Of a stretch of DNA of 64,000 bases, positions 20,877 to 36,956 are shown piece by piece. The stretch is from an uncultured Phycisphaerales bacterium (lineage in GTDB: Bacteria > Planctomycetota > Phycisphaerae > WQYP01). The stretch's first letter is position 1; each line of letters opens with the position of its first letter. The position numbers and the translations under genes were made by a program. The DNA lies in the NCBI GenBank assembly GCA_903845195.1, contig CAIMWO010000031.1, forward strand, positions 69,207 through 133,206, read 5' to 3'. Under the pieces are notes generated by a model, which saw nothing but the letters and a program-made list of their open reading frames with translations, made no database searches and had not been told where the DNA came from.

Positions 20877-21090
20877 TTCTTCGCCTCCTGAGTCGGATCC
20901 ACTTCGAGATGCCAGTCTCCACCCGAGTTGACAAGTCTTGCATGCACTTGTTCGAACCTGCTGTTTTTGTAAGTGAGATCCGATACGTCGCGAGGAAATA
21001 TTCCTCGAAACGATCGTCTGTAATACCTGCGTGACAACTTCTGCTCCGAAAGACCTCCACCAAAGGTTGGATCGCGTTAACCGTGCTCAA
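20869..21090 (-). pseudogene. 73-aa ORF spanning a deletion junction. Its 3' ~85 nt are the tail of the gene homologous to 35910..36878, read in a different frame. Probably not a functional gene.
   Basis: DNA identity of 20869-20960 with 35910-35996, but the stop falls in another frame (ND* versus DPTQEAKK*). Confidence 0.25.
20955..21045. repeat. Dispersed copy of the ~85-bp element also found at ~37975-38060 (upstream region of the second locus copy).
   Basis: Near-identical string gtgagatccgatacgt.gcgaggaaa.attcctcgaa.cg.tcgtctgtaata.ctgcgtgacaac at both sites. Confidence 0.5.
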
Positions 21091-21408
21091 AAGAGGGCCG
21101 ACAGACGCAAGGATGATTCCATTGAAGGAAGCTTTTCGTGTGGCGCAACACGTAACGCATAAGCGACGGTGCAGCCTTGCTCTCGGCAGGCTCCCCCTCT
21201 ATTAGGCTCGAACCAGCTCTGACCCCCAACCGACGATTGTTAAAGGAATAAGGCTGTCCAGTGAAGCAGTTTCAATGGCATTATTACGGTAAAATGAGGT
21301 CTGATACCACTAACCGGCATTACTATAACTGCATAATTTGTAACCAGTTACGATAACGTAAACACCTATGGGCGTATTTTGTGACACAATGCGTCACGCT
21401 ATGCTTGT

Positions 21409-22389
21409 ATGAATACATTACGCAGTACCATCGTTGCATTCATCGTCGCGGTTGCCCTCACGTTTTTGGGGTGCGAAGAACATTCTGATAAACCACAGGC
21501 ACGCAAGACAGTTGGCGTCCTACTTCTTGCGTCTCATCCGGTCCTTCAAGAGCTACGCGACGGATTCCGGGAGCGTCTCGACGAAATCGCCAAGGCGAAG
21601 AATGTGCAGCTATCGTATGATGAGAAAAACGCCGAGGGAAACGCCGCCACCCTGAATCAACTAGCCGCCTACTTCTCGACTGGGAAACACGATCTCGTTT
21701 ACGCTGTAGGGTCTGATAGTGCACTGAAATTGAAGTCCAAGGAATCTCAGATTCCCGTCATCTTCGCTGGCACCCCTGACCCTATCCGCAATGGATTTGT
21801 GGATTCATTGGAGAAGCCTGGTTCCAATCTAACAGGGGTGCGTTTCTTGGCGCCGGCAACTGTGCTTCTTGATGTCTTAGCAAAACGTCATCCAGGCATC
21901 CACAGAATTGCCGTCCTCCGAAATCCTTCTGAAATCAATTCCCTGTCGGTGGCAGATCCATTCATTGCAGAAGCTCGCAAACGAGGCATTATCATCGGCG
22001 ATTTTGGCGTCACAGAGATATCTCAACTTCCATCAATCCTCGGGAAAATCGGTTCCGAGAAATGGGAAGCCGTCTTCGTTCCCAATGACAATCTTATTTA
22101 CCAGAATCTCAAGCAGGCTGCGGCATCGCTCGCTTCATACGGTATCCCATTCTTCAGTGTCACCGACGCGTCTGTAAGAGCAGGAGCTGAATTTGCAGTG
22201 GGTGTCTCCTATCGCGAGATGGGACGCCAGGCTGCTTCGGTTGCTGCGAAGATATTGTTCGAGGGGAAGAAACCTGGCGAAGTTCCCGTGCTCGAGTTGC
22301 GCGAGGGTTGCCTCTATGTACCTGCTCAAAAATCGCAGGAATTTTCTTCTATGGCGCCTCGGGAATTTCCTGTTACGCCGGTAAAATAA
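21409..22389 (+). CDS. ABC transporter substrate-binding lipoprotein of the uncharacterised-transport family (COG2984 / ABC_sub_bind-like).
   Basis: 326 aa. Signal peptide plus lipobox LTFLGC. Periplasmic-binding fold pattern. First gene after an AT-rich ~300-bp promoter region. Confidence 0.65.
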   Translation: MNTLRSTIVAFIVAVALTFLGCEEHSDKPQARKTVGVLLLASHPVLQELRDGFRERLDEIAKAKNVQLSYDEKNAEGNAATLNQLAAYFSTGKHDLVYAVGSDSALKLKSKESQIPVIFAGTPDPIRNGFVDSLEKPGSNLTGVRFLAPATVLLDVLAKRHPGIHRIAVLRNPSEINSLSVADPFIAEARKRGIIIGDFGVTEISQLPSILGKIGSEKWEAVFVPNDNLIYQNLKQAAASLASYGIPFFSVTDASVRAGAEFAVGVSYREMGRQAASVAAKILFEGKKPGEVPVLELREGCLYVPAQKSQEFSSMAPREFPVTPVK

Positions 22390-22408
22390 ACGATAGGACT
22401 GTTCAATC

Positions 22409-23263
22409 GTGATTGAAGAAATCATCATGCAGACCGGGATTTATTGGTTCATGGCGCTTGGGCTGTGGATCAATCTCCGAGTCGTTCGATATCCCGACCT
22501 TGCCGTCGAGAACGTCCTGGTCTTGGCAGCCATGAGCACATGCGGCATTGCTGCCGCCGGCATAAACGGTGCAAGCGGTGTTGTCCTCACGGTAGTCCTG
22601 GGCGTGCCATCGGCGCTCCTCGTAGCAGGCTGCGCGTGGATAGCATGGAAAGTTCTGCGTGTTCATGCCATTATTGTCAGTCTTGCCTTAGGATACATCC
22701 TTTATTCGGTGGCGCTTGAAGCGTTTGGCGCTATGAAGGACGGGCAGGGTTTGCCTAAATTGCGTGCGAACGCACAAGGCTTGGCTATCGTCTATAGTTC
22801 CATTCTTGTTATCTGTGGGGTGCTGCAAATGATTAGAGGCTCCTCGGCAGGACGCCATTTCCTAGCCGCAGTTGGTAATCCGCCCCTCGCCCGCGCCTTG
22901 GGCATGAAACCAGCAGTCTGGCAGTGGTTGGGGCTGTCATTTGGGACATTCCTCATGATGGTCAGCGGACTTCTTCATGCCTGCTATTACACTTATGTTA
23001 ACATTGGGGATGCGGTGGGTTTTCTGCTTCTTGGAATCTTTTCAGCAGTCCTTGTAGCGAACGGCCTGTGTCCGCGTATCGTTGGCTTATGGAATGGGCT
23101 AGCGACGTTAATTGCCGTCGCGGCGTTTCAATCCGTCATCACCGTCGCGATTTACGCAGGCCTTCCAATAAATCTAAACAAAGGCTTGATGGGCTTGCTG
23201 CTGATAGGTGTGGTGGCGTTACTTCGATACAAGAAGGTCTCTCAACCCATCACTTTGAGTTAG
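22409..23263 (+). CDS. ABC transporter permease (COG4120-like, branched-chain amino acid permease-type fold).
   Basis: 284 aa with about eight hydrophobic helices. Directly follows the SBP gene. Confidence 0.6.
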   Translation: MIEEIIMQTGIYWFMALGLWINLRVVRYPDLAVENVLVLAAMSTCGIAAAGINGASGVVLTVVLGVPSALLVAGCAWIAWKVLRVHAIIVSLALGYILYSVALEAFGAMKDGQGLPKLRANAQGLAIVYSSILVICGVLQMIRGSSAGRHFLAAVGNPPLARALGMKPAVWQWLGLSFGTFLMMVSGLLHACYYTYVNIGDAVGFLLLGIFSAVLVANGLCPRIVGLWNGLATLIAVAAFQSVITVAIYAGLPINLNKGLMGLLLIGVVALLRYKKVSQPITLS

Positions 23264-23266
23264 CCC

Positions 23267-23896
23267 ATGATTACTCTTTCGCAGCTAACCTTCTCCTACA
23301 CGGAGGCCTTCGACGGATTTCGACTTGGCCCAGTTGACATGGCGATGCAACCAGGCAAGACCTACGGATGGAGGGGAAACAATGGCAGCGGCAAGTCCAC
23401 ACTTGCATCCATTCTTGCTGGTCAGCGGTCTGCAGCGACAGGTGGAATTGATGGACTCCCACCTCGGGTCCTCTATTTTCAGCAAAACATTGCGGCAAAC
23501 ATTTTTCCGGATCTCACGGTGGGGGAGCATCTTCGTCTCTGCAAAACTGCCGAGAGACGAGCAGATATCTTGCACGTGTTTCCGTCCCTCTCGCAATTCG
23601 CACGCAAGTATCCTGATGCGCTATCGGGTGGTCAACTCCAGCGCCTGGCATTCTCCCTCGCATTGATTCGCGACTTCGACCTTTACATATTTGATGAAGT
23701 AACCAACCACCTCGATCAGCAAACAGCGAAACTTGTTGGCGAAACGATGCAGTCCCTCCTCAGACGAAAACCGGACTGCACCGTGGTCTTCATAAGTCAT
23801 GATCATGACTTTCTTCGCCGCTACGCAGACGTTATCTTTACCTTCGACGAAGGAAAAGTGATTGAGGAATCCCAGTATGACCATTCGTTCACCTAA
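23267..23896 (+). CDS. ABC transporter ATP-binding protein (COG1101-like).
   Basis: Walker A GNNGSGKST. ABC signature LSGGQLQR. Walker B LYIFDEVT. H-loop ISHD. Confidence 0.8.
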   Translation: MITLSQLTFSYTEAFDGFRLGPVDMAMQPGKTYGWRGNNGSGKSTLASILAGQRSAATGGIDGLPPRVLYFQQNIAANIFPDLTVGEHLRLCKTAERRADILHVFPSLSQFARKYPDALSGGQLQRLAFSLALIRDFDLYIFDEVTNHLDQQTAKLVGETMQSLLRRKPDCTVVFISHDHDFLRRYADVIFTFDEGKVIEESQYDHSFT

Positions 23897-24620
23897 CGAT
23901 TGCAATAGAACTGCTATTGTGGTCGGCGGGACTTCAGGGTTTGGGGCTGCGATTACCGAGGAATTGCGTCAGCGTCGTTTCGCTGTGATCACGGTTGGTC
24001 GAAGTGCCGATTCGCCGCGGGGCGTGCGGCTTCATTTCTCATGTGATGTGGGCGATCTCCAGGCCTGGGATATGACCGTCGGCAAGATTCTTGAGGCAAC
24101 AATTTCTGCCAAAGTGGATGTCCTGATTTATACCGTAGGCTACGCTCGAGTATTTCCATTCGGTCACACTCCGTCGGAAGAATGGCACCGGCACCTACGG
24201 TTAAATTTGACCTATGTAGCAGAGAGTTTTCCGTACCTGGAGACGGTTCTTTCTGAGAATGCAAGCATAGCTACGACGGGGAGCCAATGGTCTTTCCGAC
24301 ACGGGTGGCCTGACCTAATTCCTTACATAACGGCTAAGCATGCATTGGCAACCCTCACCGAAGAGTACGCTGCGACTTTTCCTCAGCGGCGATTTAGGCA
24401 CTACTGCGTGCCTACTATGGCAACCCCTGGTTACGATGCGGTGCGCCAGTCTGTAATCGAGAACAAGGGAACACTGCATACCCTCTCCGACAAATCTCGT
24501 CCTGCTGATATTGGATTAATTAGTCGCGTATTCGTAACCGATCTGCTAGATTCTACCGTTACTCATCCCGTGACGCGTGAAATCAGCGCTGCCGGTAATC
24601 TGAAACCTGTTGGTGCATGA
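23877..24620 (+). CDS. Short-chain dehydrogenase/reductase (SDR) family oxidoreductase.
   Basis: ORF track 23862..24620. TAIVVGGTSGFGAAI (TGxxxGxG cofactor motif). YITAKHAL (YxxxK catalytic motif). Confidence 0.65.
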   Translation: MTIRSPNDCNRTAIVVGGTSGFGAAITEELRQRRFAVITVGRSADSPRGVRLHFSCDVGDLQAWDMTVGKILEATISAKVDVLIYTVGYARVFPFGHTPSEEWHRHLRLNLTYVAESFPYLETVLSENASIATTGSQWSFRHGWPDLIPYITAKHALATLTEEYAATFPQRRFRHYCVPTMATPGYDAVRQSVIENKGTLHTLSDKSRPADIGLISRVFVTDLLDSTVTHPVTREISAAGNLKPVGA

Positions 24621-25657
24621 TGAAAGATAGCGTAAAGGAAGTCGCCGAATACTTTGGGAAGCGCGCTGCACGATACCAGCTTTCGCAAGAAACATGCCCT
24701 ATGGCGCGAAGCCTGGATTTAATTCCTTACGTATACGTTATTGATGGCGTGATACGCCAATTCTCTCGAAGTCCAGGAGACTTACGGATTTTCGATGCCT
24801 TTGGAGGCTCCGGCTTTTTGTCGAGGTCATTTGCACACACTGAAATTCGTTTCACAATTGCTGATTGCACAAACGCCTATAAGCAAGACGGCAGCAACAA
24901 ACATGAGTGGCTGATATGTCCCGACTATTTCCGCGCCATATCCGCAGAACGAGCTGGAGAATATGATCTTGTGTTTGCGCATGGTGGACTTCATCACGTC
25001 TATGTTAAAGACAATGCTGGACTGGAAGATGAAACATCTGTCGGCCTTCAACACCAGTGTGTCGCTAACCTCTCGCGGCTACTCCGCAAGGGAGGTTTCC
25101 TGGTGTTAGCGGACATACCAGACCGGCCGTCCCGAGTGGACGCACATGGAAGTGACATTTCGCTTATCGATACCAGCATGGCAATTGACTTATTTGGCAA
25201 CGAACGACTAGCGTTCCTTCGGTCTGCAGCCACCGATTTCTCACTGTCTCCGTCGTTGAATAACACGTGCCACACTGTTGAGTCCATTTTCCGTGACTCC
25301 ACCCACCCCGGCTCTCTGCGGCGTTTCTTTGACGAGGAAGTTGCGCGCAAGACTCCCAACGGCCACGAAGCCTGTTTCCTTGATTTTGAAAGGATCATAG
25401 CAAGGGCTGCCAAACATGATCTGTGTTTAATGGCCCTCATACCTTACCCGGGAGCATGGGTATTTGAGACTGCGAACCAGGCCGTGTGGTTCTTTCGCGA
25501 AATGTTTGGCTTTGGACAATCGATGCCCCCTTTCCAGGAAGATTCGCAAGATTACGTCGTGAAGTCCGCCATTTCCGACACACTAGGGATGAGGAGTGTG
25601 GGCGATCATCTCGCGGTTAACTGGGGCGTGAGCTACGCAATCTTCAGGAGGGATTAA
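24617..25657 (+). CDS. Class I SAM-dependent methyltransferase.
   Basis: Motif I IFDAFGGSGFLS. Motif LRKGGFLVLADI. 4-nt overlap with the upstream gene. Confidence 0.55.
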   Translation: MMKDSVKEVAEYFGKRAARYQLSQETCPMARSLDLIPYVYVIDGVIRQFSRSPGDLRIFDAFGGSGFLSRSFAHTEIRFTIADCTNAYKQDGSNKHEWLICPDYFRAISAERAGEYDLVFAHGGLHHVYVKDNAGLEDETSVGLQHQCVANLSRLLRKGGFLVLADIPDRPSRVDAHGSDISLIDTSMAIDLFGNERLAFLRSAATDFSLSPSLNNTCHTVESIFRDSTHPGSLRRFFDEEVARKTPNGHEACFLDFERIIARAAKHDLCLMALIPYPGAWVFETANQAVWFFREMFGFGQSMPPFQEDSQDYVVKSAISDTLGMRSVGDHLAVNWGVSYAIFRRD

Positions 25658-25658
25658 C

Positions 25659-27923
25659 ATGGCGCAAGACATGCAGATCCTCCTGCAGAACTATCAGGGT
25701 ACGTTCATCCTAGACATGCTGAATGAGTTCCGCAAAGATGTTATTCGATGCATGTTTCGGGACATGGTTATTGCCATTGATTCGATCCATACCTCGCCAC
25801 CTCTCGAGAACCATTCGAGGGAACTGTCTGCTTTTCTGCGTAATTCCGATTGCCTAGCTTGGGCGAACTCGTTTTCCGAATGGTTTGGCGCCGATTGCCC
25901 GGCTCATGTGAAATCGCTATACGTCAATCTTCAACTCGCGGCAAGAGAATTTATAGTGAAATTCAATAGTAAACCGAAGACCGAAATATGGGCATACTTA
26001 TACTCGCCACAGTTCGCCACAAAATTGCGTATAAGTGCTGGGGATAAGCAAGGTTACAGAGGTGATTCCTTAGCCGGTCTTTTCAACGTCGTGGCTCTTT
26101 CGATCGACAAGAAGAACGTTAAGCTCATCCAGCCGCATGACATTGAGTTAACTGGCGGATTTCACACTTTACAATGTTGCTTCCCTATTTTGAACGCGAC
26201 GGCCCGGAGCCAACTCGCTAAAGATTTCGAGGAAGAACAAGAGTTTATATCACTCCCGCTCGAAGAAGATTTTTCTATTAAGCCTGCGATTTTTCGAGGA
26301 CATACAGCCGTCTGCTACGACACGGGCTATTACCAACATCACGTAGGAAGTTTGAGTCTTCTCCCAAAGGCACGACGGGTATACAACACTTGCTTTCTGC
26401 AAATCAGACCTCAGGCGGATCTGCAAAAGGCCAACGGTCCGGTTGGGTTCATTCAATTACAGTGCTGCTTGCCAGGACTAATGAACTTTCTTGTCCCGAA
26501 GTCGACAAGCAAGGATACAGATGTTCTGGTGTTGGGCATCGATAAACAGCTCGTTGCCACGAAAGGATGCGAAGATAACTTCAAAGACGTGGTCCTTGCC
26601 GAATTTGCTAACGATTGGTGGGAGAGCGACAAAGAACGGAGAAGTTTATGTACCTTCTGGAGGCTGCGAGAACTTACGCATGGCTGGCCGCGTAGGCTTT
26701 ACAACATTCTGGACTTAGGCAAGAGGCAGGCGGCCATACTGGAGAAAGAGTTGGTTCGGCGGGAGCAGCACAAATACCGCCAGCAACTTCAGTTGTTGGA
26801 TCAACCCATTGACGACTTACTGTCGGCCGTCGGCCTCCTGCAAGAGTCGTCCAGCCAGGTGTACGCGATAGTGAGGGAGCCGTCTGACGCAATTTTCGGA
26901 ATACATCACCAAGTGGCACCACTTTTCGATGAGAACAGCGGGAAACTAGTGGTCGCATCGGACTTCTCTGCGCGGATCCAACACGATCCGATGGAATATG
27001 ACGAGAAGGAGGAAGTTGATATTAAATCTTTGCGCTCTGTAGTAGCGATGCTTCTCCTTAAGTGGACTGGGTATCACAAGAAAACAACGACGTTAACATA
27101 TCTGCAGTTTATGACAAAGGCGTCACAATGGCTCGATAAATGCGAGCGTGATGGCAAGGCCTACCATTGGCTTCTGTCGCAAATCCGGGGTGTGTTACTA
27201 CGCCCAGCACCTAACGCTACCACGCCACCCCAAGTGGACCGAATGAGCGATCTGCTGGGAACAGGGTACCCATTCGCCGCGCTTCAGCAGGGTGCTTGTG
27301 CCGCCAAGTCACTGTTGTTTACCCCGTTCAAACTTGGTGCGAGTGAATTGGGGGTGCTTCCAGTAGCCATTGCCGCAAAACTCGATCACAAGAAGACGTT
27401 TGATATCGATCGCGGAGAAGTGATAAAGGCAACAATTTCGGACGTCGCGGCGGTCGAGGAACACCTCACGTTGACGCGCGACATTTCCCCCGCATTACCA
27501 AAGGACATCATCCAATTTATACACGGCGTTGTTGGGGAAGCGTTCAACCGCCGCCAGTCTCTCAATGTTGACGCTTTGCAGATTAAAAGGTGGTACTACG
27601 AGGACAGGGACATCAATTGGCAGCATATTCGAATCACCTTTTCTGATTCGTATTTGAAAGGGGCATTGAAGAAGTTGCGTGGCGAAGTGGATAGCCTGCT
27701 AAGAGCTGACCGCGATTGGAGAATAGAGTTTGGCGCTTCCGGCAATTTCAGTGCACCTTTTAAGACGTTGGCAAATCGGCTGCTCGGCGTTGGATCGGAA
27801 TGGTTCGTGTCTCCCACGCTTGAAGAAAGCGATGTCTTTAGGCTTATGAACGCAACGAGCCACAATACTTTCGCCGTTTCATCCCATGACAGGTGCATTT
27901 GCCTTGAATGGCAAAAAAAGTGA
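25659..27923 (+). CDS. Large hypothetical protein (754 aa), no recognisable domain.
   Basis: Begins 2 nt after the methyltransferase stop. Balanced composition. Confidence 0.55.
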   Translation: MAQDMQILLQNYQGTFILDMLNEFRKDVIRCMFRDMVIAIDSIHTSPPLENHSRELSAFLRNSDCLAWANSFSEWFGADCPAHVKSLYVNLQLAAREFIVKFNSKPKTEIWAYLYSPQFATKLRISAGDKQGYRGDSLAGLFNVVALSIDKKNVKLIQPHDIELTGGFHTLQCCFPILNATARSQLAKDFEEEQEFISLPLEEDFSIKPAIFRGHTAVCYDTGYYQHHVGSLSLLPKARRVYNTCFLQIRPQADLQKANGPVGFIQLQCCLPGLMNFLVPKSTSKDTDVLVLGIDKQLVATKGCEDNFKDVVLAEFANDWWESDKERRSLCTFWRLRELTHGWPRRLYNILDLGKRQAAILEKELVRREQHKYRQQLQLLDQPIDDLLSAVGLLQESSSQVYAIVREPSDAIFGIHHQVAPLFDENSGKLVVASDFSARIQHDPMEYDEKEEVDIKSLRSVVAMLLLKWTGYHKKTTTLTYLQFMTKASQWLDKCERDGKAYHWLLSQIRGVLLRPAPNATTPPQVDRMSDLLGTGYPFAALQQGACAAKSLLFTPFKLGASELGVLPVAIAAKLDHKKTFDIDRGEVIKATISDVAAVEEHLTLTRDISPALPKDIIQFIHGVVGEAFNRRQSLNVDALQIKRWYYEDRDINWQHIRITFSDSYLKGALKKLRGEVDSLLRADRDWRIEFGASGNFSAPFKTLANRLLGVGSEWFVSPTLEESDVFRLMNATSHNTFAVSSHDRCICLEWQKK

Positions 27924-27930
27924 GGACGTA

Positions 27931-28689
27931 ATGAAGGTTGTCATACACGACCACAAATCCCGCGACGATTTCTCTTGGGCCAAAATAATCGCGAAACTCG
28001 CCACGAAGACGGGTGTGAGGATTGCGGAATTCGTCACGGATAGGCCGAGCATTGATATGGTGCGTCCGGAGTGTGGAGGGGGTGACACCATCATTTTCTT
28101 ACATTCGGAGCAGTGGAGACAATGGAATATTGCTCAGGAGAATATCGTTCAGCCTCTTGCAGGCATTCTTGTACATGTCGGAACAAATGGTTTTTCAGGG
28201 CAGCATTCACCTTTCCAAAACCGTCGGTATGCAAGTAGGTTTACGGCGAAACAATTCGCGGAAAATGGCAGGGGGGAAGCGTTCTTTGCTTCTGTTGCGA
28301 ATGGGCATCCAGATTGGGAGTTCCTCAATCCGGCTGCGACGGAGGAACTCCGTGCCCTCAAGATCCTGTGCGAAGCGTGGAAGTTTGTTTTTGTTGCAGA
28401 GAAGAAGAAGGTTGCCGGCATTTCCGTTCACGCCCCGGAAACCCCGGCGGCCTGGTTCAAACCTTTCGACTGGATGTTCCCGGCCCCGGTTAACCTCAAC
28501 AGCGAGGAGGAAAAGCGTCGTATCCATAAAGAACTACCAGCTTTGGTCGCCCTGATGGGAGATGCCGAGGGAGACGCGATGAATCTGCTGACGGCGGTTA
28601 TAACGGGAGACGACCTCAGGATACCGGTCGAGACATTCCTGGATAGGTTCCCTGGCTCCAAACCAGCAGCAACGAAGGCGGGCACATGA
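27931..28689 (+). CDS. Hypothetical protein (~252 aa).
   Basis: ORF track 27886..28689. ATG at 27931 has an AGGA RBS and lies 8 nt after the upstream stop. N-term MKVVIHDHKS...IIFLHSEQW suggests an alpha/beta fold. Confidence 0.45.
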   Translation: MKVVIHDHKSRDDFSWAKIIAKLATKTGVRIAEFVTDRPSIDMVRPECGGGDTIIFLHSEQWRQWNIAQENIVQPLAGILVHVGTNGFSGQHSPFQNRRYASRFTAKQFAENGRGEAFFASVANGHPDWEFLNPAATEELRALKILCEAWKFVFVAEKKKVAGISVHAPETPAAWFKPFDWMFPAPVNLNSEEEKRRIHKELPALVALMGDAEGDAMNLLTAVITGDDLRIPVETFLDRFPGSKPAATKAGT

Positions 28690-30230
28690 CAACCACGCCC
28701 CCCATGAATCCTGTTTCGCGGGCTCTTTCCTTTGTCCTGAAAGGGAATCCCAGTCTCCTCGTCCTCGATTACGCGGACAAGGGCACATTCTCGGATCTCT
28801 GGCTAAAGGGATTGGAGTCATACACTCCAGAAATTGCTGGACACCAGGTGCCTTGGAATGATGAGCACGAGGTTGTGCTAATTGTTGGTGGACCGCCTCC
28901 CGCCGAGGCATTCAAGGAAATGCCGGAGTGCCTCAACGGTATCAATTTTCGCGATCATTTAACTGCGGCGTCATGGGCGGCGGCCTGGCGGCTCAGGTTT
29001 CCAGGCGCCAAGGCGCGTGTAGTTGTGCTCGCATCGAGTTCATATGGAACGGTGGGTTCGATCGCCGAGGCTCTGGCCACCCTGTTTAGCGCTCATGATG
29101 CGACCGGTTTGCCGCTCGTGCCTGGGATTAGCTTCTTGGGGTCGCCCTCGCTGGAAATCCTGTGCGAGAGCCTGAATGCTGATGACGGTGAAGTCATGGA
29201 ACCAACACCAACTGTCTTGGCGATGCTGCGCACCACTCTCTGGTACGGACTGACTTCTGATCGCGGTGACCACCATGCCGTGAGCAACGTCCTAGGTGCA
29301 CTCTTGCTGAGCTCTCAAGTAGGAAGGGGAGAGGCTCACGGAGGTCGAGCTTGGGCTGAAGATTATCTTCTCGCCCTGGCGAAGGCATGTGGCGTATTCG
29401 CCAACAGCGATCAAGCAGAAGTCAAGAATCGCCAGGGATCCAAGTGTTGGATAAATCCGCAAATACAGAGCGTCGTTAGCGCGGCAGTCCTGATCGATGA
29501 CATGGCCGACTTATGGGGAGTTTTCCTTCGAAACGCACTTGGGTTTGCCAGTGGTGCGGATTTCACAGGACAAGACCGCACCTTCCGTGAAAGTTTCGTC
29601 AGCTCACCTGACGGGAAATTCTTCGATGAACTCCAAGGATTGCCTGCAAGGTTAAAGGCTTTTCTCGGCTCCGGTGATCCATTCATTGCCGCCAGTGACC
29701 TTATCTCCGGGCAGCATAAGGTCAAGAAAGACTTCGTTCTATTCCTAGATCTTCGCCTCTTTCCCAAACGCGGTCTTGGCAGAAGCGATCAACAGGCGAT
29801 GTTTTTTTCAGAACTCGCTGAATTCGGTCTTGCCCTGCTTAATCCTGATCGCAATCTGCCATGGCTCGATGAGCTCGGACAAGAGCTTCTGCGGAATGAA
29901 CTTGGGCAATATGACGTCACGGTCTCGCATCAACCCTCTAATGGTGCGGGCCTCGACCTGCCTCCAGAGGAAACACTATTGCCCCGCCTCCTATCGCTGC
30001 TGGACCCAACACTTCCTATCGTCATCTTCTCTTCCACGCATCACAGTGAATTGACAGACCCATTCCGCGATTATGGCAACATCATCACCACCTTTCGAAA
30101 ACCGGTCGTCACCGCCATGACTCGTGATTGGATAGCGACGCTTGAGGAACTCCACGCCGATTTCGTCTCGGCGCTGGAGAAGTCAGCCAAGGTGATGAGT
30201 GCAAGAAGCATACTGCAGAGTTTTTATTAA
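28686..30230 (+). CDS. Hypothetical protein (514 aa).
   Basis: ATGA-type 4-nt overlap with the upstream gene. No known motif recognised. Confidence 0.5.
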   Translation: MTTTPPMNPVSRALSFVLKGNPSLLVLDYADKGTFSDLWLKGLESYTPEIAGHQVPWNDEHEVVLIVGGPPPAEAFKEMPECLNGINFRDHLTAASWAAAWRLRFPGAKARVVVLASSSYGTVGSIAEALATLFSAHDATGLPLVPGISFLGSPSLEILCESLNADDGEVMEPTPTVLAMLRTTLWYGLTSDRGDHHAVSNVLGALLLSSQVGRGEAHGGRAWAEDYLLALAKACGVFANSDQAEVKNRQGSKCWINPQIQSVVSAAVLIDDMADLWGVFLRNALGFASGADFTGQDRTFRESFVSSPDGKFFDELQGLPARLKAFLGSGDPFIAASDLISGQHKVKKDFVLFLDLRLFPKRGLGRSDQQAMFFSELAEFGLALLNPDRNLPWLDELGQELLRNELGQYDVTVSHQPSNGAGLDLPPEETLLPRLLSLLDPTLPIVIFSSTHHSELTDPFRDYGNIITTFRKPVVTAMTRDWIATLEELHADFVSALEKSAKVMSARSILQSFY

Positions 30231-30252
30231 CAAGGTTATTTCGGGGTGCGGC

Positions 30253-31446
30253 ATGAAATTGTTGGAAGTGTTCTTGGATGAATCTGGGGATATTAATCGC
30301 GGCGGGCCGATGAACATCACCGGAATCGCGGTCCTAAGTCCAAGCGCCAAGGTTGCACAAGCTTTTCATGCTTCGCTCTACACTGTTCTCAAGCCCGAAG
30401 GCCTGACTTCGGGCCTTTGCGATCAATCAGTCGCCAACGGCTCAACATGGGAAACTGTTCGTGCTCCGCAGGGCTACATCCCCAAGCGGCCGAAATCCGG
30501 CGAATGGCTGCAATTCGAAGGGAAGATATCGCAAGTCGCTCAACGCGCTGACGTCCTAGCTGAACGGCTAGGGGTATGGATCAGCGCCTTTTCCTTGGAA
30601 TTTCGCGCCAGTAACCGGCGAGGGTGGAGCACAAACAACGCCACCGAAGATCTGTTGTTGGATCGCACTTACGGGGAGTGCCTTCAGGATGTACTGGAAG
30701 TCTTGCTTTACGAAACTCCTGGCATCCGAGCCAGTTTATCTGATACAGAGGGTTGTGCCCTGGGGATAGATCTTCCCTCACGTATGCTTGGCGCATCAGG
30801 GGCCGATGCGTCCAGCCAAAGAGCAACTATTCAGCAGATGTGGCGGAATTGGGGTATTGACGCCTGGACAGAGATGGCAGATGACGGCCAAATCCAGGTG
30901 ATGGCCAACACGCTTGGAGCATCCGACGGTGTTGACGTCCTAACCGCAGCGCTCAATCGTCGCAAGAATGCAGATATTGCTTTCATAGTGCAACGAGCGC
31001 GATGCTGCAGGCTTGTGACATGGTCGCAATGGCTGGAGGCTGGGAACCTCCCAGAGCAGTCACGAATATCAAAACAGTCTACCATGATTAATAGCACTCC
31101 CCGCCCGAAGCAGATTCATTATTTGGCTGACTATTTAGCGAATCGCTTATTTCAAGGCAGTATCCAGCCAAACAGCGCTCCCTTCGGAAAGTGGTTTGAC
31201 CGTGGATTCCTTCTCTCAAGCGCGGATGAGCATGCTGGCTCATGGATCGGAGCATCGAGGGCGTTTGCGAATGGCAATCGAGTCGAAGCGATACGAAATG
31301 CAGGTGTCATTTGTGCTGATCCTCAGCATAGAGAGACAAAAACATCTTCCTTTTTTAGACGGGCAGCGCGGGAATGGGCAAAGTCCCTTACAGGAAATGA
31401 CTTCCGGGAACTCTTTGGACTAGCCCCAGGGACGACGAATATCTAG
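30253..31446 (+). CDS. DUF3800-like protein (N-terminal LxxFLDESGD motif).
   Basis: ORF track 30199..31446. Internal ATG at 30253 gives MKLLEVFLDESGD..., which resembles the conserved DUF3800 N-terminus. Confidence 0.4.
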   Translation: MKLLEVFLDESGDINRGGPMNITGIAVLSPSAKVAQAFHASLYTVLKPEGLTSGLCDQSVANGSTWETVRAPQGYIPKRPKSGEWLQFEGKISQVAQRADVLAERLGVWISAFSLEFRASNRRGWSTNNATEDLLLDRTYGECLQDVLEVLLYETPGIRASLSDTEGCALGIDLPSRMLGASGADASSQRATIQQMWRNWGIDAWTEMADDGQIQVMANTLGASDGVDVLTAALNRRKNADIAFIVQRARCCRLVTWSQWLEAGNLPEQSRISKQSTMINSTPRPKQIHYLADYLANRLFQGSIQPNSAPFGKWFDRGFLLSSADEHAGSWIGASRAFANGNRVEAIRNAGVICADPQHRETKTSSFFRRAAREWAKSLTGNDFRELFGLAPGTTNI

Positions 31447-31454
31447 AGGCTCAA

Positions 31455-32228
31455 ATGTCTTCAACAGTCTTAAATGAATGGCAATATAATCCACCGGAAT
31501 CGGTGGTGGTTGGCTGCGGCTCTTATTCCGCGGCCCTTGCCAGTATTTTGGGGACAGTCCCCCTTCCATTCGACGAACTGCATGCCGGTCCGGAACCAGA
31601 TACTGACGGCAGCTATGAATGCCTTTTGGAAAACCTGAAACACGTGCTCTTGGTAGTCTCAAACGAAATGGCTGCCGCCGAGACGCTCCGATGTCATCAA
31701 TCCTTATGGCGCTGGGTCGAAAAATTATCCTCTGCTGGTTGCCAGCATGATCTGGCCTTTCTATTCGTTCTCCTGGAAAATACTTCCGAACAATACGAAC
31801 ACGCCCTCGCAATCGGCTTGAGCGTCCCCGCTATCCATCCACCAACCACCGGCCATGCCGTCTGGCGGCGGTCAGGGTCACTCCCGGAACTGCTCGACCT
31901 CGTGGCGGCCACCCAATCGATGGACTTACTCCAACTGACGGCCCGCCGGGCTGTCGACATCAAGCGCCTGGCCTTGGCACGGCTACAGTCCGCTGTTGGA
32001 CGGGATGATTTGAATGACCTCCAAGGCGCCGTGCAGGCCGTTTTTCAAACTTTCCGCGGCAACGAATATGAATTCGATCTATTCTGCCGGCCCCCGAGTC
32101 ACCGCAATGGTAATCTTCTTCGCCGATGGCTGACCGTCGCCGTGACCGGAACCGTCACGCAGGATTGGTGGACCACCGGGAAATCTCAGCTTACCTCCTG
32201 GCTAGATGAAAGGCTGCTATCACCATGA
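31455..32228 (+). CDS. Hypothetical protein (257 aa).
   Basis: 8-nt gap after the upstream gene, 4-nt overlap with the downstream gene. Confidence 0.45.
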   Translation: MSSTVLNEWQYNPPESVVVGCGSYSAALASILGTVPLPFDELHAGPEPDTDGSYECLLENLKHVLLVVSNEMAAAETLRCHQSLWRWVEKLSSAGCQHDLAFLFVLLENTSEQYEHALAIGLSVPAIHPPTTGHAVWRRSGSLPELLDLVAATQSMDLLQLTARRAVDIKRLALARLQSAVGRDDLNDLQGAVQAVFQTFRGNEYEFDLFCRPPSHRNGNLLRRWLTVAVTGTVTQDWWTTGKSQLTSWLDERLLSP

Positions 32229-33544
32229 GCTCTATTCGGATACTAATCGTTGAGGATGACTCGCAACTGCTACCCATTTTAGCGACTTCCTATCGCAAGA
32301 TCTTCGCGTCCCTTGGCTACGTGGTGACCATTGAGCAAACGAGTAATGTGGCGGACGCAAGACAACTGGCGAAGGCCGCTCATGGTAAACCTTACGATTT
32401 TGTTTCACTCGACGTAAATCTTGGGGACGGCACGCTGACTGGTCTGAACGTCTTGGAAACGTTCAATCGATTTCGATCCGCCTGGATGGTGGCCTTGCTC
32501 ACCGGCGTCGAATCGGACGCGAAGCTGGATGCGACCTTAGGGAGGTCCGAAGCCGAGGATCTTCGCAAAAAGCTTCGCCGGCATGCATACGCGAACTTTC
32601 CAGCGGAACGGCTCATGGTGGTCGAAAAGCCATCCCCGAATGCCGACGACGCGCAGACACTTCTTTCTAATCGGCTAATCCAAATCGCTTTAGTTTACGA
32701 CGAGGTTGCACGCCTTCGCTACGTGTTCCGCCCCATAGAGGTCGCCGGACTCAAGCGCGTCCGGGCGCCCAAGGGAAAGAAGGTGAAGCGCTCGTTCATC
32801 AATACTACCTCGGTGCATTGGCAGATCAGGTTCAATTGTGGCGAAATCAGGACCCTACCAGATATGGCCGGCTTTCAAACTCTCCACCGCTTACTGGCGC
32901 TAGATCGCACCCAGTCGGTTACCCCCGAAGAAGCATTGATGAGTGAACCCAAGACCGAAAAGGCTGAGACCATAAAGACCGAGACGGTCACGCCGGATTG
33001 CGATGCCGATCCGTTGGCTACCTACTTTGAGGCCAAGGGAATCACCTGGAAGGGGCTCCCCCGAGAGGAGCAGGACACGCTGATTCGAGCGGCACTTTCC
33101 CTGCGGATAACGCGATACGTGGAGTTAAGAGAACTGCAGGATGATGAGGACGTCTCGCCTGCCGAAGGAAACGAATTGGATGCAATCAAGAAGGAACTCG
33201 GTCCGCTGGTGGGCGCGGCAGAGCGTGCCTATCAGAGCATTACTGCAATATCCAATCGCCAGAAGGCAGAGGAGGAAGAGGACAAGGACGAGAAATTTGG
33301 GGTGGCAGAAATGTCGGCGGAGGGTCTCCACCTTGAAGGCGGAAACTATGACCGAATCGGAAACGACCGGCGAGGATGGGATTCACCGGGAGGCCAAGCC
33401 TTCCGTGCCAGGATGAAACGCGTCAGGGATTGCCTGCGGGAGAATGGGTTTGACGATTTCGCCACACACATCGAAAAGTCCATCCAGTCCGCCAACGGCA
33501 AGTGGAGTTACAATCAGCCTAACGACATCGAGTGGACAACATGA
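32225..33544 (+). CDS. Response-regulator receiver (REC) domain protein with an uncharacterised ~300-aa C-terminal domain and no obvious HTH output.
   Basis: ILIVEDD...DFVSLDVNLGDG...ALLTG phospho-acceptor pattern. C-terminal ...KWSYNQPNDIEWTT is shared with the paralogue at 33868..35247. Confidence 0.6.
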   Translation: MSSIRILIVEDDSQLLPILATSYRKIFASLGYVVTIEQTSNVADARQLAKAAHGKPYDFVSLDVNLGDGTLTGLNVLETFNRFRSAWMVALLTGVESDAKLDATLGRSEAEDLRKKLRRHAYANFPAERLMVVEKPSPNADDAQTLLSNRLIQIALVYDEVARLRYVFRPIEVAGLKRVRAPKGKKVKRSFINTTSVHWQIRFNCGEIRTLPDMAGFQTLHRLLALDRTQSVTPEEALMSEPKTEKAETIKTETVTPDCDADPLATYFEAKGITWKGLPREEQDTLIRAALSLRITRYVELRELQDDEDVSPAEGNELDAIKKELGPLVGAAERAYQSITAISNRQKAEEEEDKDEKFGVAEMSAEGLHLEGGNYDRIGNDRRGWDSPGGQAFRARMKRVRDCLRENGFDDFATHIEKSIQSANGKWSYNQPNDIEWTT

Positions 33545-33867: not shown

Positions 33868-35247
33868 TTATGTCGTCCACTCTATGTCGTCGGGTGGATT
33901 ATAGCTCCATTTGGCGCCGGGAGACTGAATAGAGTCTTCGATGTGTTTTGCGAACTCAGCGTATCCGTTTTCCCGCAGGTATTTGAAGACGCGCCCCTTT
34001 CTTTGACGGAAGGCCCAGCCAGCCTTTGACTCCTTTCCACGTCGGGCGGGACCATTAGTTACATCAATCCCGCCCTCCTGCCCGAGACCCTCGACAGCCG
34101 CTACCGTCGCCCCCCCCGGCCGGCGATTCTTGGCGTCCCGCCCGGGAGCTTCTTGTTCAGTATCGTTCTGCTTTCCTGCGGCGGCAGCCCTGCTGCGGTA
34201 TTTGTCCTCGGCAATGGCTGCGAGTGGACCAAAGCCCTTCACCATTGCCTCCAACTCATTTTCTTCGCTGGCCAAGAAGTAGGCCTTGGGGTTCTTATCA
34301 TCCTGCATTTCCCTTAGCTCCATGTATCGCATCATCTTCGGGGAAAGCTCCTCTTGAATCAGCGCGTCCAGAGTGTCAGGCGGAAGCCCATCACAGACGA
34401 TTCCCTTGGCTTTGAAATAGGCGGCCACTCCCCTGGCTACGGAGTTTGCGGCCACGGGCTCTTCATTCGCATCTGGACTGACGTTCTCAGGCTTTTCGTT
34501 TTTGGGTTCTTTCATCAATGCTTCCTCGGGCGTAACCACTTGGTTGCGATCTTGCGAGAGCAGGAGCCGGAGAGTCTGGAAGCCGACCATGTCGGGAAGG
34601 GTTCTCATGTCGCCACAATTAAACCTGATCTGCCAATGCACGGAGGTCGTCTCGATAATCCTGCCCTTCTCCTTTGAACCTTTGGGCGATGGAACGCGTT
34701 TGAGGCACGGAACCGTAATGGGTCGGAACACGTAACGAAGGCGCTCGATCTCTTCATACACATGCGCGATTTGTACCAGTCGATTAGTAAGGCGTGCTTG
34801 TGCCTTTTCTGCCTTGTCTGCATCCTTAAGCAAGGAATCCGGTTTTTCGACGACCATCAGTCGCTCGGCGGGGAAACTCGCGTACGCACGCTGCCGGAGC
34901 GTTTTACGAAGGTCCTCCGCTTCGATGCTCCCCACCGTCTTATCCAAGCTCTCGTCCGATTCCACGCCCGTGAGCAACGCGACCATCCAGGCAGATTGGA
35001 AACAATTCAGCGTCTCCAGGACGTGCAGCCCGTTCAGGGTGCGTTCCCCGAGATTTACGTCTAGGGAAACGAAATCATATGGTTTTCCGCGAGCAGTTTT
35101 CGCCAGTCGCCTCGCGTCCGCTACAGTACTCGCCTGCTCAAAAGTTGGCTTGTATCCAAGATCTGAAAATATCTTGCGATACGACGCTTTTAAAAACGCA
35201 AGCAGATTCAGATCGTCTTCGACAATCAAAATATGGACGGACTTCAT
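33868..35247 (-). CDS. Paralogous REC-domain protein (same architecture), convergent with 32225..33544.
   Basis: ORF track 33868..35352. ATG at 35247 (MKSVHILIVEDD...) has a GAAGG RBS. About 55% identity to the upstream paralogue across the full length. Confidence 0.6.
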   Translation of the reverse strand: MKSVHILIVEDDLNLLAFLKASYRKIFSDLGYKPTFEQASTVADARRLAKTARGKPYDFVSLDVNLGERTLNGLHVLETLNCFQSAWMVALLTGVESDESLDKTVGSIEAEDLRKTLRQRAYASFPAERLMVVEKPDSLLKDADKAEKAQARLTNRLVQIAHVYEEIERLRYVFRPITVPCLKRVPSPKGSKEKGRIIETTSVHWQIRFNCGDMRTLPDMVGFQTLRLLLSQDRNQVVTPEEALMKEPKNEKPENVSPDANEEPVAANSVARGVAAYFKAKGIVCDGLPPDTLDALIQEELSPKMMRYMELREMQDDKNPKAYFLASEENELEAMVKGFGPLAAIAEDKYRSRAAAAGKQNDTEQEAPGRDAKNRRPGGATVAAVEGLGQEGGIDVTNGPARRGKESKAGWAFRQRKGRVFKYLRENGYAEFAKHIEDSIQSPGAKWSYNPPDDIEWTT

Positions 35248-35526
35248 GGGAATACCTTCTTTCCATCTAACCAAGAGGTAAGTTGGGTTTATCTCGAGAC
35301 TCATTAATCCTGCGTGACAGGGTTGGTCACAGTGGCATTCAACCACTTGCAAAGAAGATGACCATCTTCATGGTGGTCGGGCTGTCGACAGTACAGATCA
35401 ACCCCTACAAGGCCGAAGGCGTGCACAATACCCCGCGCGACGGCCTGGATGACTTTTCTCCTAAGTGCTGTATCGTAAGGTGTTAAACGTCGATTGCTCT
35501 TTCGTTCCGCCGGATTGAGATGCAGT

Positions 35527-35913
35527 TTAATTCTTATGAGCGACAACTGGTGGCCTTGGATCAGGGCGAGGGTTTGATGGAAGCGTATTTGGAGGCGATG
35601 GAGCTGGTGCGGGGTTGCCGGGGCGCGTCGTGGGCATACGCTGATTTAGGTCGGAGATGATGTTGTTGAGGATAGTGTCCCGCTTCCTGTCGGCATTGCG
35701 ATGCTGCTCCCAGGCACGAATCACGGGATCCGTTGAGGGCGCAACGGGGGGAATCGTCGATTCCGCGGAATTGGCAGAGGCCCTAGGAGGCGAGATCCAA
35801 CGCGCGACGTTGGCTTTCGAGAGCCCGGCCTCCCACAGGGTTCTGCCGTAGCGGTTCCAGCCGATGATCCCAAGCGCCAGTATGCCAATGATCAATAGCA
35901 GTCGTTTAATCAT
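35527..35913 (-). pseudogene. Truncated duplicate (first ~100 aa) of the secreted protein 19527..20876. Diverges into unrelated sequence after ~300 nt.
   Basis: MIKRLLLIIGILALGIIGWNRYGRTLWEA... is nearly identical to the N-terminus of 19527..20876. DNA identity over ~35615-35913. Confidence 0.4.
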
Positions 35914-36878: not shown

Positions 36879-36956
36879 GAGAGATCCTCCATGTCTGTGT
36901 TCATGTAAGAAACCACGGCGGCTTCGCCAGCCGTGGCCCCCTCTCCGCCTTGTGGT

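Follow-up and report, generated by a model that had tools for sequence, protein, structure and literature searches.

Do eleven closely spaced genes of an uncultured Phycisphaerales bacterium, which set an ABC importer and small-molecule enzymes ahead of several large proteins and a response regulator, form a single system, and what might such a system do? The genes occupy positions 21409-33544 of the window (the whole 64,000-nt stretch of DNA analysed here), and the initial annotation, made from the sequence alone, had taken them for one operon that could act as an uptake-and-modify/signalling module or a defence-like system.

Organisation of the block and its surroundings

All eleven ORFs lie on the plus strand, and each of the ten junctions is either a gap of no more than 22 nt or a short overlap. 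The ORF coordinates of the initial annotation were correct, as was every junction it gave (23263/23267, 24620/24617, 25657/25659, 27923/27931, 28689/28686, 31446/31455 and 32228/32225); absent from it were 22389/22409 (19-nt gap), 23896/23877 (20-nt overlap, computed with the SDR start codon picked by database gene callers) and 30230/30253 (22-nt gap). The features of the block are:

21381-21397, plus: palindrome GTGACAcaATGCGTCAC, 11-27 nt 5' of the SBP start codon
21409-22389, plus: substrate-binding protein (SBP) of the ABC importer, a lipoprotein, 326 aa; PF04392 E = 4.5e-48, lipobox FLGC
22409-23263, plus: ABC permease, 284 aa; PF02653 (BPD_transp_2) E = 3.4e-10
23267-23896, plus: short ABC ATPase, 209 aa; PF00005 E = 1.8e-18
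23877-24620, plus: short-chain dehydrogenase/reductase (SDR), 247 aa; PF00106 E = 4.5e-17, motifs GGTSGFG and YITAK
24617-25657, plus: g346, class I SAM-methyltransferase-like protein, 346 aa; motif I FDAFGGSGF, Methyltransf_11 sub-threshold
25659-27923, plus: g754, large protein with a conserved C-terminal module of ~375 aa (26736-27920)
27931-28689, plus: g252, ~250 aa, family C4/C20, position kept in 12 loci
28686-30230, plus: g514, N-terminal half of the split C1 protein; alpha/beta domain (aa ~20-165), helical segment and predicted receiver-like domain (aa ~265-480, 29478-30125)
30253-31446, plus: g397, C-terminal half of split C1, predicted DUF3800/RNase H-like nuclease
31455-32228, plus: g257, ~255-aa partner of the hub regulator, family C2; 4-nt overlap with REC439
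32225-33544, plus: REC439, hub response regulator; receiver aa 1-136 (32225-32632), novel output domain aa 137-439

The AT-rich promoter region proposed upstream of the block was borne out only as a mild AT bias (GC 0.48 versus about 0.52-0.55), and a sigma-70 scan found no promoter-like site there; within the block, promoter- and terminator-like sites were no more frequent than shuffle expectation. In an alignment of the window with its closest counterpart, locus L004, the palindrome GTGACAcaATGCGTCAC together with the short GGTTACGA was the main conserved block of an otherwise diverged intergenic region. Its pattern was found in only three of 56 loci (L001, L002 and L004), and it is a possible operator or translational control site. 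No Rfam family, including the DUF3800-associated RNA motif, was found in the window.

REC439 is the last co-directional gene, as the initial annotation had it, but the block has no clean end there, being followed by a truncated convergent copy and enclosed as a whole by direct repeats. The surrounding features are:

15271-17736, minus: TrwB/HerA-like P-loop ATPase, 821 aa; TrwB_AAD_bind, DUF87 and TraG-D_C domains
20554-21043: left copies of the flanking direct repeats (repeat search)
33868-35459, minus: truncated second copy of the cassette, made up of a g257-like remnant (35459-35247) and, after it, a 459-aa REC paralogue (35247-33868)
35591-35890 and 37981-38069: right copies of the flanking direct repeats (repeat search)

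Along its full length the REC paralogue shares 58 % identity with REC439, residues 190-257 of g257 map to the remnant by tblastn, and inverted repeats I1-I3 connect the two copies. The direct repeats comprise 300 nt at 86 % identity and 89 nt at 90 % identity, and the left copy holds a deletion derivative of the m368-m322-m128 gene set. With a transposase and an FtsK-like gene, the repeats and the truncated duplicate give the locus an island-like setting. The TrwB/HerA-like ATPase, 3.7 kb from the cassette on the opposite strand, is 38 % identical to a protein (C23) encoded immediately downstream of the hub REC gene in L030 and L031, and is a possible accessory gene of the cassette.

A modular cassette family

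The single-system proposal was tested by neighbourhood comparison anchored on g754, REC439 and g514, and whichever the anchor, the hypothetical proteins proved to be conserved together, in company with an ABC importer and the REC gene. The arrangement exceeds chance, since the whole gene order recurs in L004 (53-85 % identical) and on the P0002 contig, and its rear part in ~20 further loci. The window block is one member of a modular cassette family, found mostly in Verrucomicrobiota MAGs, with a fixed rear part (C1, C2 and hub regulator), within which the g257-type and REC439-type genes are the invariant core, and an exchangeable front of ABC importer, small-molecule enzymes, a large protein with the ~375-aa module of g754 and a ~250-aa protein like g252. 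No published description of such a family was found and no PADLOC model matched any of the unknown proteins, in keeping with the earlier statement that the composition fits no described pathway. Viral contigs and plasmids yielded no relatives, so nothing ties the family directly to mobile elements or phages.

The calls of an ABC importer and an SDR were upheld by PF04392, PF02653, PF00005 and PF00106. The SBP and permease are 78 % and 85 % identical to their L004 counterparts, and the ATPase has legible Walker A (GNNGSGKST), signature (LSGGQ), Walker B (LYIFDE) and H-loop (ISHD) motifs, a PADLOC mad3 match to it being restricted to the generic ABC region. The PF04392 importer itself is no defining part of the cassette, because four importer classes (PF04392, Opp/Dpp-like, NMT1-type and Liv-type) head homologous cassettes. 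The methyltransferase call is weak for g346 alone (17 bits against Methyltransf_11, cut-off 21.2; 20.4 bits for the L004 orthologue) but is strengthened by motif I and by methyltransferase domains fused N-terminally to g754-type proteins in P0330 (34.1 bits), L020 and L007. A fused methyltransferase domain is likewise carried by the C42 front protein (32.8 bits), and in L058 a methyltransferase gene follows the importer; methyltransferases recur in the variable front of the family, next to other enzymes.

The N-terminal ~360 aa of g754 are confined to its own subfamily, and its conserved C-terminal module, which defines 186 representative clusters, had no PDB fold match. The g252 families C4 and C20 are related to each other (hhalign probability 99.3 %) and conserve the motif LCEAW...HAP..P..WF.PF; Pfam, NCBIfam and PADLOC profile searches gave no domain match for g252. 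The cassette is a mosaic of exchangeable modules, its front being closest in sequence to L004 and its rear to L015: g514 shares 48 % identity with its L015 counterpart but 25 % with that of L004, to which the front genes are 53-85 % identical. Related loci add genes for REC-HD-CE (C11, both domains over Pfam cut-offs), PRTase-CE (C27), TCAD9 (with a weak REC match in the long form of C3), VWA, HerA/TrwB-like and tubulin-like proteins.

Receiver and predicted nuclease components

A REC-domain protein with a novel output had been proposed for the last gene, and this stands: REC439 passes PF00072 (31.1 bits, cut-off 30.2), with E10, D63, T93, K135 and P136 invariant and D11 nearly so, leaving the phospho-acceptor site intact, whilst its conserved 300-aa output domain had no Pfam, NCBIfam, PDB sequence or PDB fold match. 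A homology search yielded 178 related proteins, ~430 aa long and 53-66 % identical, for the most part named Verrucomicrobiota. In no fewer than 21 of 27 cases the gene directly 5' of the hub REC gene is of the g257 type; the g257 family (33-62 % identity; invariant H216, R223 and W85) had no domain match and no PDB sequence match.

The initial annotation placed g514 and g397 among the proteins without recognisable domains, a description that no longer holds, because they are two halves of a ~900-1100-aa protein, fused in most relatives, which is predicted to join a receiver-type domain to an RNase H-like nuclease. It had also called g397 DUF3800-like. By itself g397 has no Pfam match, being too diverged for the DUF3800 model, but it aligns over its full length to the C-terminal halves of the fused homologues, one of which (P0150) clears the DUF3800 cut-off (30.4 versus 21 bits), and shares with them an N-terminal DE motif, a conserved C-terminal Asp and an RNase H-like fold. 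Conserved residues of C1 comprise a DD/D/S/KP pattern and the acidic D9, E10, D137, E149 and D293. The putative receiver of g514 is suggested by predicted structure and this residue pattern; profile comparisons of g514 with REC families were not significant.

Function of the cassette and comparison with known systems

Overall, the cassette bears more resemblance to a device for cell conflict or signalling than to a metabolic pathway, and we tentatively favour a Detocs-like, receiver-gated nuclease conflict system with an imported small molecule as its input. The importer would take up a specific small molecule, which the enzymes would modify, and the g754 and g252 proteins would sense the molecule or the act of transport. 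The signal, carried by a phosphoryl group or by a conformational change, would next reach both receiver domains, and activated g514 would turn on its partner nuclease g397, so that nucleic acid is cut. REC439 and g257 might be a transcriptional or regulatory arm, or else set the threshold by acting as a phosphate sink, a role that would parallel DtcB of Detocs. The outcome would be a conflict- or defence-type response such as abortive infection, kin- or signal-triggered growth arrest or attack on invading nucleic acid, following the logic of Detocs with another sensor and no canonical kinase. We counted in favour of this reading the gene order and coupling, co-conservation from three anchors, conserved residues, the DUF3800 hits in fused homologues, receiver-effector proteins in related loci, module shuffling, the island-like setting and the Detocs precedent. 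Counted against it were the lack of a kinase-like fold in g754, of PADLOC matches, of a significant g514 profile and of viral or plasmid relatives, and a search for histidine kinases and other phosphodonors that came up empty both in the window and in ~20 related loci. ABC importers and tailoring enzymes are also, to our knowledge, atypical of known defence systems.

A possible, somewhat less likely alternative is a substrate-responsive uptake and regulatory operon without a conflict role, in which a nutrient or xenobiotic would be imported and processed, REC439 would be a transcription factor with an unrecognised DNA-binding domain controlling the cassette and neighbouring genes, and g514 and g397 would serve RNA processing or turnover. 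Every cassette has a functional-looking importer and enzymes at its head, and which enzymes are present depends on the importer class (a carbamoyltransferase together with a LOG-like protein, radical SAM, or a PLP enzyme), as would be seen with substrate-specific pathways. The hub regulator (53-66 %) is far more conserved than its neighbours, as expected for a regulator, and the conserved palindrome 5' of the SBP gene and the sigma54-type activators and RNA-polymerase-like gene downstream in some relatives also fit such an operon.

It is improbable that the cassette produces a small molecule or signal (for example a modified amino acid or peptide), with the large unknown proteins as scaffold enzymes and the receivers regulating production. 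Tailoring enzymes do recur (SDR, methyltransferase, radical SAM, PLP enzyme, carbamoyltransferase and DegT-type aminotransferase) alongside large conserved proteins with no assigned fold, but the transporters come with substrate-binding proteins and are thus importers, not exporters, no core biosynthetic enzyme (NRPS, PKS, RiPP precursor or cyclase) was detected, and it is the receiver and nuclease genes that are invariant, not the enzymes. Nor does the block probably consist of two adjacent units, an ordinary transport operon (importer, SDR and methyltransferase) and a separate downstream one, which we consider most improbable. The closest relatives do differ between front and rear halves, the C2-hub pair is without the front part in some loci (L023), and the window itself has a truncated copy of that pair. 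Against this stand the tight spacing at all ten junctions, the shuffle-level internal promoter- and terminator-like sites, the importer that, whichever the anchor, heads the co-directional genes wherever a locus extends far enough upstream, and the fusion of methyltransferase to g754-type proteins in relatives. An uptake-and-modify/signalling module or defence-like system stays the best reading, with corrections for the split C1 protein, the mosaic modules, the importer class and the right end.

Parts of the cassette have known counterparts. All three importer components are of the PF04392/TrpX type, although the SBP scores 163.9 bits against NCBIfam TrpX, well under the 390-bit equivalog cut-off, the ATPase is unusually short (209 aa) and Opp/Dpp-like, NMT1-type or Liv-type systems replace this importer in homologous cassettes. 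REC439 resembles classical response regulators and orphan receivers in passing PF00072 and in its full acidic pocket, T and K-P residues, but has neither a cognate kinase gene nor a known output domain and is always paired with a ~255-aa protein. DUF3800 (PF12686) is an RNase H-like domain tied to retron type VII and Cas12a2 systems (PMC7736814, PMC10910872), and the g397 family has the DE motif, C-terminal Asp and RNase H-like fold of those effectors; the g397 domain is coupled to a receiver-type domain, whereas the known ones are coupled to a reverse transcriptase or a TPR/Cas12 partner.

The NTP-dependent 'ternary' conflict systems (vWA-MoxR, TCAD, EAD and '-CE' effector domains; Kaur et al. 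2020, PMC7159879) share a similar phylum and a highly modular style, and TCAD9, HD-CE, PRTase-CE, VWA and tubulin-like genes adjoin related cassettes, but the window cassette is without their MoxR, vWA, STAND or GTPase core; ABC transporters go unmentioned in that paper (0 occurrences), and receiver domains are noted there only sporadically. That an effector fused to a receiver can serve in defence is shown by Detocs, the defensive two-component system DtcA/DtcB/DtcC (Rousset et al., bioRxiv 10.1101/2023.01.24.525353). The window cassette differs from Detocs in having no histidine kinase, in a DUF3800/RNase H-like effector instead of a PNP ATP nucleosidase, in a second receiver protein that bears a large conserved 300-aa domain instead of standing alone, and in an added ABC importer, enzymes and three further unknown proteins, with no PADLOC match. 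Common to both are a receiver fused or coupled to a cell-damaging effector (predicted here), a second receiver protein in the same operon and an effector that is exchangeable between loci.

Gene layout and conservation of the cassette

The ORF listing bore out the eleven plus-strand genes at 21409-33544 described by the initial annotation, in the order substrate-binding protein (SBP), permease, ATPase, SDR, the methyltransferase-like g346, g754, g252, g514, g397, g257 and the hub response regulator REC439. All gene junctions that it had listed were correct, and at three further junctions the genes stand 19 nt (22389/22409) or 22 nt (30230/30253) apart or overlap by 20 nt (23896/23877). The window is matched by a JGI freshwater metagenome contig and by two other assemblies, and on the identical contigs public gene callers start the SDR at 23877, the 252-aa protein at 27931 or 27886 and the 397-aa protein at 30253. 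Pfam searches agreed with the assignment of a PF04392 SBP, a PF02653 permease, an ABC ATPase, an SDR and a receiver domain in the last gene, and the five proteins termed hypothetical indeed had no match in Pfam, NCBIfam or PADLOC.

The region upstream, which had been proposed as AT-rich, is so by base composition but only mildly, and promoter-like sites are fewer than in shuffled sequences, the consensus scan being uninformative for this phylum. A terminator scan of the window, likewise uninformative for this phylum, gave no clear terminator. No Rfam family reached its gathering score over the window, and hence no DUF3800-associated RNA or riboswitch was found in it. Shortly before the SBP start codon, both the window (21381-21397) and the related locus L004 (5700-5716) have the palindrome GTGACAnnATGCGTCAC, which is kept between the two whilst the remainder of the intergenic region has diverged.

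The gene order from ABC importer to REC gene is repeated in L004 and in the P0002 contig, the latter starting inside the importer. The cassette is conserved, co-directional and tightly packed. Identity to L004 varies along its length, and a single 1088-aa gene in L004 takes the place of g514 and g397.

Identity of cassette genes to related locus L004
Transporter genes: 78-85 %
SDR and methyltransferase-like gene: 64 %
g754, g252 and g257: 53 %
g514: 25 %
g397: no match
REC439: 60 %

A word-index search of 5.8 billion proteins gave the 754-aa protein just five homologues. For REC439, homologues of about 430 aa number 178 or more, with 53-66 % identity, and the few with a source name are from Verrucomicrobia or Verrucomicrobiota. 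Scans yielded six loci in species-representative genomes and 42 in metagenomes, in which ORFs were called and then clustered into protein families (C-numbers), giving a recurring gene order.

Recurring gene order across related loci
1-2: ABC importer, then enzymes
3-4: large protein of family C5 (including g754), C8/C47 or C42; optional 410-600-aa protein
5-6: protein of about 250 aa, family C4/C20 (including g252); C1 protein, 900-1130 aa
7-8: C2 protein, about 255 aa (g257); hub REC gene

C1 is encoded by two genes in the window (g514 and g397) and in loci L029, L035 and L058. The hub REC gene is directly preceded by C2, or by its distant relative C30, in at least 21 of 27 cases, and C1 lies no more than three genes upstream of it in at least 15 of 21, both counts being lower bounds because the ORF calls were crude. 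The same architecture was recovered with two distant C1 proteins (P0200 and P0188) as anchors. These loci form a modular family built on a C1-C2-hub core; viral contigs and plasmids held no relatives of the hub regulator.

Protein families of the cassette

REC439 scored 31.1 bits against PF00072 (cut-off 30.2, E = 2.8e-7), and receiver domains were the only matches in a PDB profile search. Across 18 diverse homologues E10, D63, T93, K135 and P136 are invariant and D11 nearly so. Conservation is also high across the C-terminal 300 aa, where the motifs HWQIRFNCGEIRTLP, DCLRENGF and WSYNPP..IEWTT occur, and this output domain had no fold match in the PDB. In the preceding protein g257 residues W85, H216 and R223 are invariant; it has no detectable relatives and the C2 family profile found no match among PDB sequences. 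C2 and C30 are mutually homologous. A short W-x-Y-N-x-P-like motif is common to REC439 (WSYNQP, aa 427-432) and g257 (WQYNPP, aa 9-14), and hhalign of the REC439 C-terminus with the g257 N-terminus at this motif covered 13 columns and was not significant.

A profile search gave 93 C1 homologues, and in many fused members the C-terminal half aligns with the whole of g397. Several of these halves match Pfam DUF3800 (PF12686) at exactly the equivalent position (P0150 with 30.4 bits against a cut-off of 21; P0131, P0126, P0149 and P0148 weakly), g397 itself having no DUF3800 match at E <= 1 and three of 20 members of one alignment (A2) matching weakly. A structural model of concatenated g514 and g397, built with 83 homologues (pLDDT 87.7, pTM 0.75), predicts an RNase H-like fold for g397. 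Across 54 sequences D9 and E10 are conserved in 100 %, D137 in 90 %, E149 in 88 % and D293 in 98 %, all of them present in the window protein, and K78 and H289 likewise fall within 88-100 %. These residues fit the carboxylate active site of RNase H-type enzymes, and also the DE motif that PMC7736814 describes for DUF3800. We conclude that g397 is an RNase H-like nuclease with intact carboxylates, its nuclease activity being predicted.

The same model predicts a CheY-like (beta/alpha)5 fold in g514, where all 84 sequences compared have D271, D272, D355, S450, K472 and P473. The strands predicted to precede these residues (267-270, 351-354, 445-447 and approximately 466-470) place them at the ends of beta1, beta3, beta4 and beta5 of an alpha/beta domain at aa 265-480, which is the canonical receiver pattern. 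By sequence profile g514 had no Pfam match, and hhalign probabilities were 0.1 % against the hub REC family and 1.5 % against a canonical REC profile; since these are not significant, the receiver assignment draws on the model and the residue pattern. Of a putative 'receiver-gated RNase H-like nuclease' the nuclease half is therefore well supported and the receiver half moderately so, and the cassette encodes one certain receiver, in REC439, and one probable receiver, in g514, each with an intact acceptor site. A PDB sequence profile search with the C1 family returned no matches.

An exhaustive HMMER profile search placed g754 in a family of 186 representative clusters that have only the C-terminal ~375 aa in common, the N-terminal parts being variable. 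This module had no fold match in the PDB, and the C5 family profile matched no PDB sequences. A reading of g754 as a divergent histidine kinase was rejected because neither HisKA/DHp nor HATPase_c (GHKL) features were found and it lacked any fold or sequence support. C8 and C47 are mutually homologous by hhalign; no relationship of C8/C47 or C42 to the g754 module was detectable (C5 against C8, hhalign only 57 %), and C5 profiles gave no matches to other front proteins. The g252 family, which includes C20 (C4 against C20, hhalign 99.3 %), carries no annotation.

The importer is of the PF04392 type, with SBP, permease and ATPase all present and their motifs intact by Pfam, the ATPase sequence showing Walker A, signature, Walker B and H-loop motifs. 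The SBP scored 163.9 bits against the NCBIfam equivalog for TrpX (tryptophan), far below the cut-off of 390. That g346 is a SAM-methyltransferase, as initially annotated, holds for class I motif I, which is present, but not for the Pfam methyltransferase score, which at 17 bits falls below the cut-off of 21.2 (20.4 bits for the L004 orthologue); a PDB sequence search with g346 gave no match. Methyltransferase domains fused in relatives exceed the Pfam cut-offs. Importer and enzymes alike look functional.

Both components change between loci. The importer combines PF04392 with BPD_transp_2 in the window and L004, SBP_bac_5 with two BPD_transp_1 permeases in L031, L057 and others, NMT1 with BPD_transp_1 in L007, and Peripla_BP_6 with two BPD_transp_2 permeases in L058. 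The enzymes are an SDR plus methyltransferase, a LOG-like protein plus carbamoyltransferase, a radical SAM enzyme or a PLP enzyme. Of the enzymes the methyltransferase recurs most often; it stands as its own gene in the window, L004 and L058, and is joined N-terminally to the large protein in L020, L007, P0314, P0324, P0330 and C42, fusions which link g346 functionally to g754.

Mosaicism, neighbours and possible surrounding island

The rear genes are closest to those of L015, a locus from the same metagenome with a different front module (g514 48 %, g257 62 % and REC439 66 % identical), and the front genes are closest to L004, which puts a point of recombination between g252 and g514. Downstream lies a convergent REC paralogue of 459 aa, 58 % identical to REC439, with what remains of a g257 C-terminus in front of it; the whole (33868-35459, minus strand) is a truncated second cassette. 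Two direct repeats flank the cassette and this paralogue.

Direct repeats flanking the cassette and REC paralogue
20554-20853 and 35591-35890, direct repeat, 300 nt, 86 %
20955-21043 and 37981-38069, direct repeat, 89 nt, 90 %

Co-directional genes for proteins of 368, 322 and 128 aa without family match occupy 35527-38063 (minus strand), a stretch that the right-hand repeats enclose and that lies upstream of the REC paralogue. The left repeat copy is a deletion derivative of this gene set (m368-m322-m128; 38063-35527, minus strand), and the ORF at 19527-20876 (minus strand) has an N-terminus that matches the 128-aa protein with 82 % identity. Upstream of the 368-aa gene, at 38044-38180, a 58-nt unit occurs in tandem with two copies at 38044-38159; its motif, TGCGTGACA, occurs a third time at 38170 and also in the left repeat at 21028. 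As a recurrent operator TGCGTGACA was rejected, its enrichment in the window having gone once repeats were discounted.

The wider window holds many unannotated ORFs and Sel1/TPR proteins, and three of its genes suggest that the cassette lies in a variable genomic island.

Candidate island genes in the wider window
41070-43286, minus strand, Sel1-repeat protein, 738 aa
45545-48970, minus strand, FtsK/SpoIIIE-like ATPase, 1141 aa
50175-51338, minus strand, rve-family transposase

A 1723-aa ORF without Pfam match at 51761-56932 (minus strand) shares nearly its whole length with an opposing 1419-aa ORF (52724-56983, plus strand).

In relatives, the hub REC gene adjoins further candidate effectors, namely C11, which combines REC and HD-CE domains (both above Pfam cut-offs), and C27, a PRTase-CE protein. 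Beside it stand long C3 proteins with weak REC, TCAD9/kinase-like and weak glycosyltransferase-3 matches, and further neighbours include an IU-nucleoside hydrolase, VWA proteins and a TrwB/HerA-like ATPase (C23). An N-terminal scaffold common to C1, C3 and C11 was not supported. An 821-aa ATPase of the window (15271-17736, minus strand) is 38 % identical to C23; since it lies 3.7 kb off on the other strand its membership of the cassette is unproven. Many loci, though not the window, carry a giant protein of about 1600-2134 aa just downstream of the hub REC gene.

Loci with the giant RNA-polymerase-like protein
L007, 14014-19392
L006, 16492-21293
L010, L015, L020, L033 and L042, also present

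Its domains are of both beta type (Rpb2_6, Rpb2_7) and beta'-type (Rpb1_2, Rpb1_5), which makes it a fused, much shortened RNA-polymerase-like protein, and it is often accompanied by a protein of about 335 aa and a sigma54-type AAA+ activator. A 1088-aa Tubulin_2 (PF13809) protein is encoded directly upstream of the importer in L004 (2164-5430), with a VWA/PKD protein alongside, and also in L007 (1-389); in L023 Tubulin_2 (a C45 fragment) lies directly upstream of the C2-hub pair. The Tubulin_2 gene may be part of an even larger system, and the RNA-polymerase-like and tubulin-like genes of related loci suggest a larger, unexplored Verrucomicrobiota regulatory network.

Proposed function and comparison with known systems

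In the mechanism that we propose, the importer and enzymes would supply the input, which g754 and g252 would sense. Receivers would then be switched, with the nuclease as output, and the hub regulator with g257 could act as a second output or threshold device. A conflict role is favoured by the effector repertoire of the family, the shuffling of its modules, its island-like context and the known occurrence of DUF3800 alongside retrons and CRISPR systems (PMC7736814, PMC10910872). Since defence systems do not usually include importers and tailoring enzymes, an operon for uptake and regulation stays a serious rival. A more speculative reading, to which we give a minority chance, is a new class of conflict or signalling system, in which a small-molecule cue delivered by a dedicated ABC importer and tailoring enzymes reaches new sensors, the g754 module and g252, and from them acts through a phosphorelay free of canonical kinases on receiver-gated effectors. 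In the window the effector would be the RNase H-like nuclease, whilst relatives would use HD-CE, PRTase-CE and others, and in some lineages the hub, with its novel output domain, would control a dedicated fused beta/beta' RNA polymerase.

HisKA and HATPase_c domains were absent from every scanned window ORF and from all related loci, and the phosphodonor for two apparently intact receiver domains, with no kinase encoded, is a biochemical puzzle. The conserved families without annotation are the g754 module (186 representative clusters), g257, the hub output domain (more than 170 members) and g252, and DUF3800 nucleases gain a testable regulatory partner.

In PADLOC and NCBIfam scans of all cassette proteins without assigned family, generic ABC and SDR matches were the only ones. 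No description of the cassette was found in PADLOC, NCBIfam or the searchable literature on -CE domains, TCAD9 and receiver-effector defence systems, including Kaur et al. 2020. The core of the vWA-MoxR ternary system consists of a MoxR AAA+ ATPase and a vWA protein, neither of which occurs in the scanned ORFs, including all window ORFs of at least 300 aa, and a VWA gene is found in some related loci only.

The nearest described logic is that of Detocs, the defensive two-component system DtcA/DtcB/DtcC, where phosphate passes from a kinase to a receiver-effector protein and a further receiver serves as signal buffer, the effector of DtcC being a PNP in 80 % of cases and another effector in a minority (bioRxiv 10.1101/2023.01.24.525353). 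Membership fails on kinase, buffer protein and homology. Detocs has the sensor histidine kinase DtcA, whereas the cassette loci carry no kinase domain; DtcB is a stand-alone receiver 'buffer', whereas REC439 carries the conserved 300-aa C-terminal domain; and in place of DtcC, to which no search detected homology and PADLOC no match, the cassette has a receiver plus nuclease architecture, here split over two genes. We class the cassette as a putative receiver-gated effector system set apart by its unannotated families, two of which (the g754 module and hub output domain) also match no PDB fold, by its import-type input and by its missing phosphodonor. If this holds true, the idea behind Detocs, that two-component signalling is re-used to trigger cell-damaging effectors, would extend to a new phylum, a new effector in the DUF3800 nuclease and a new input in the import of a specific molecule.
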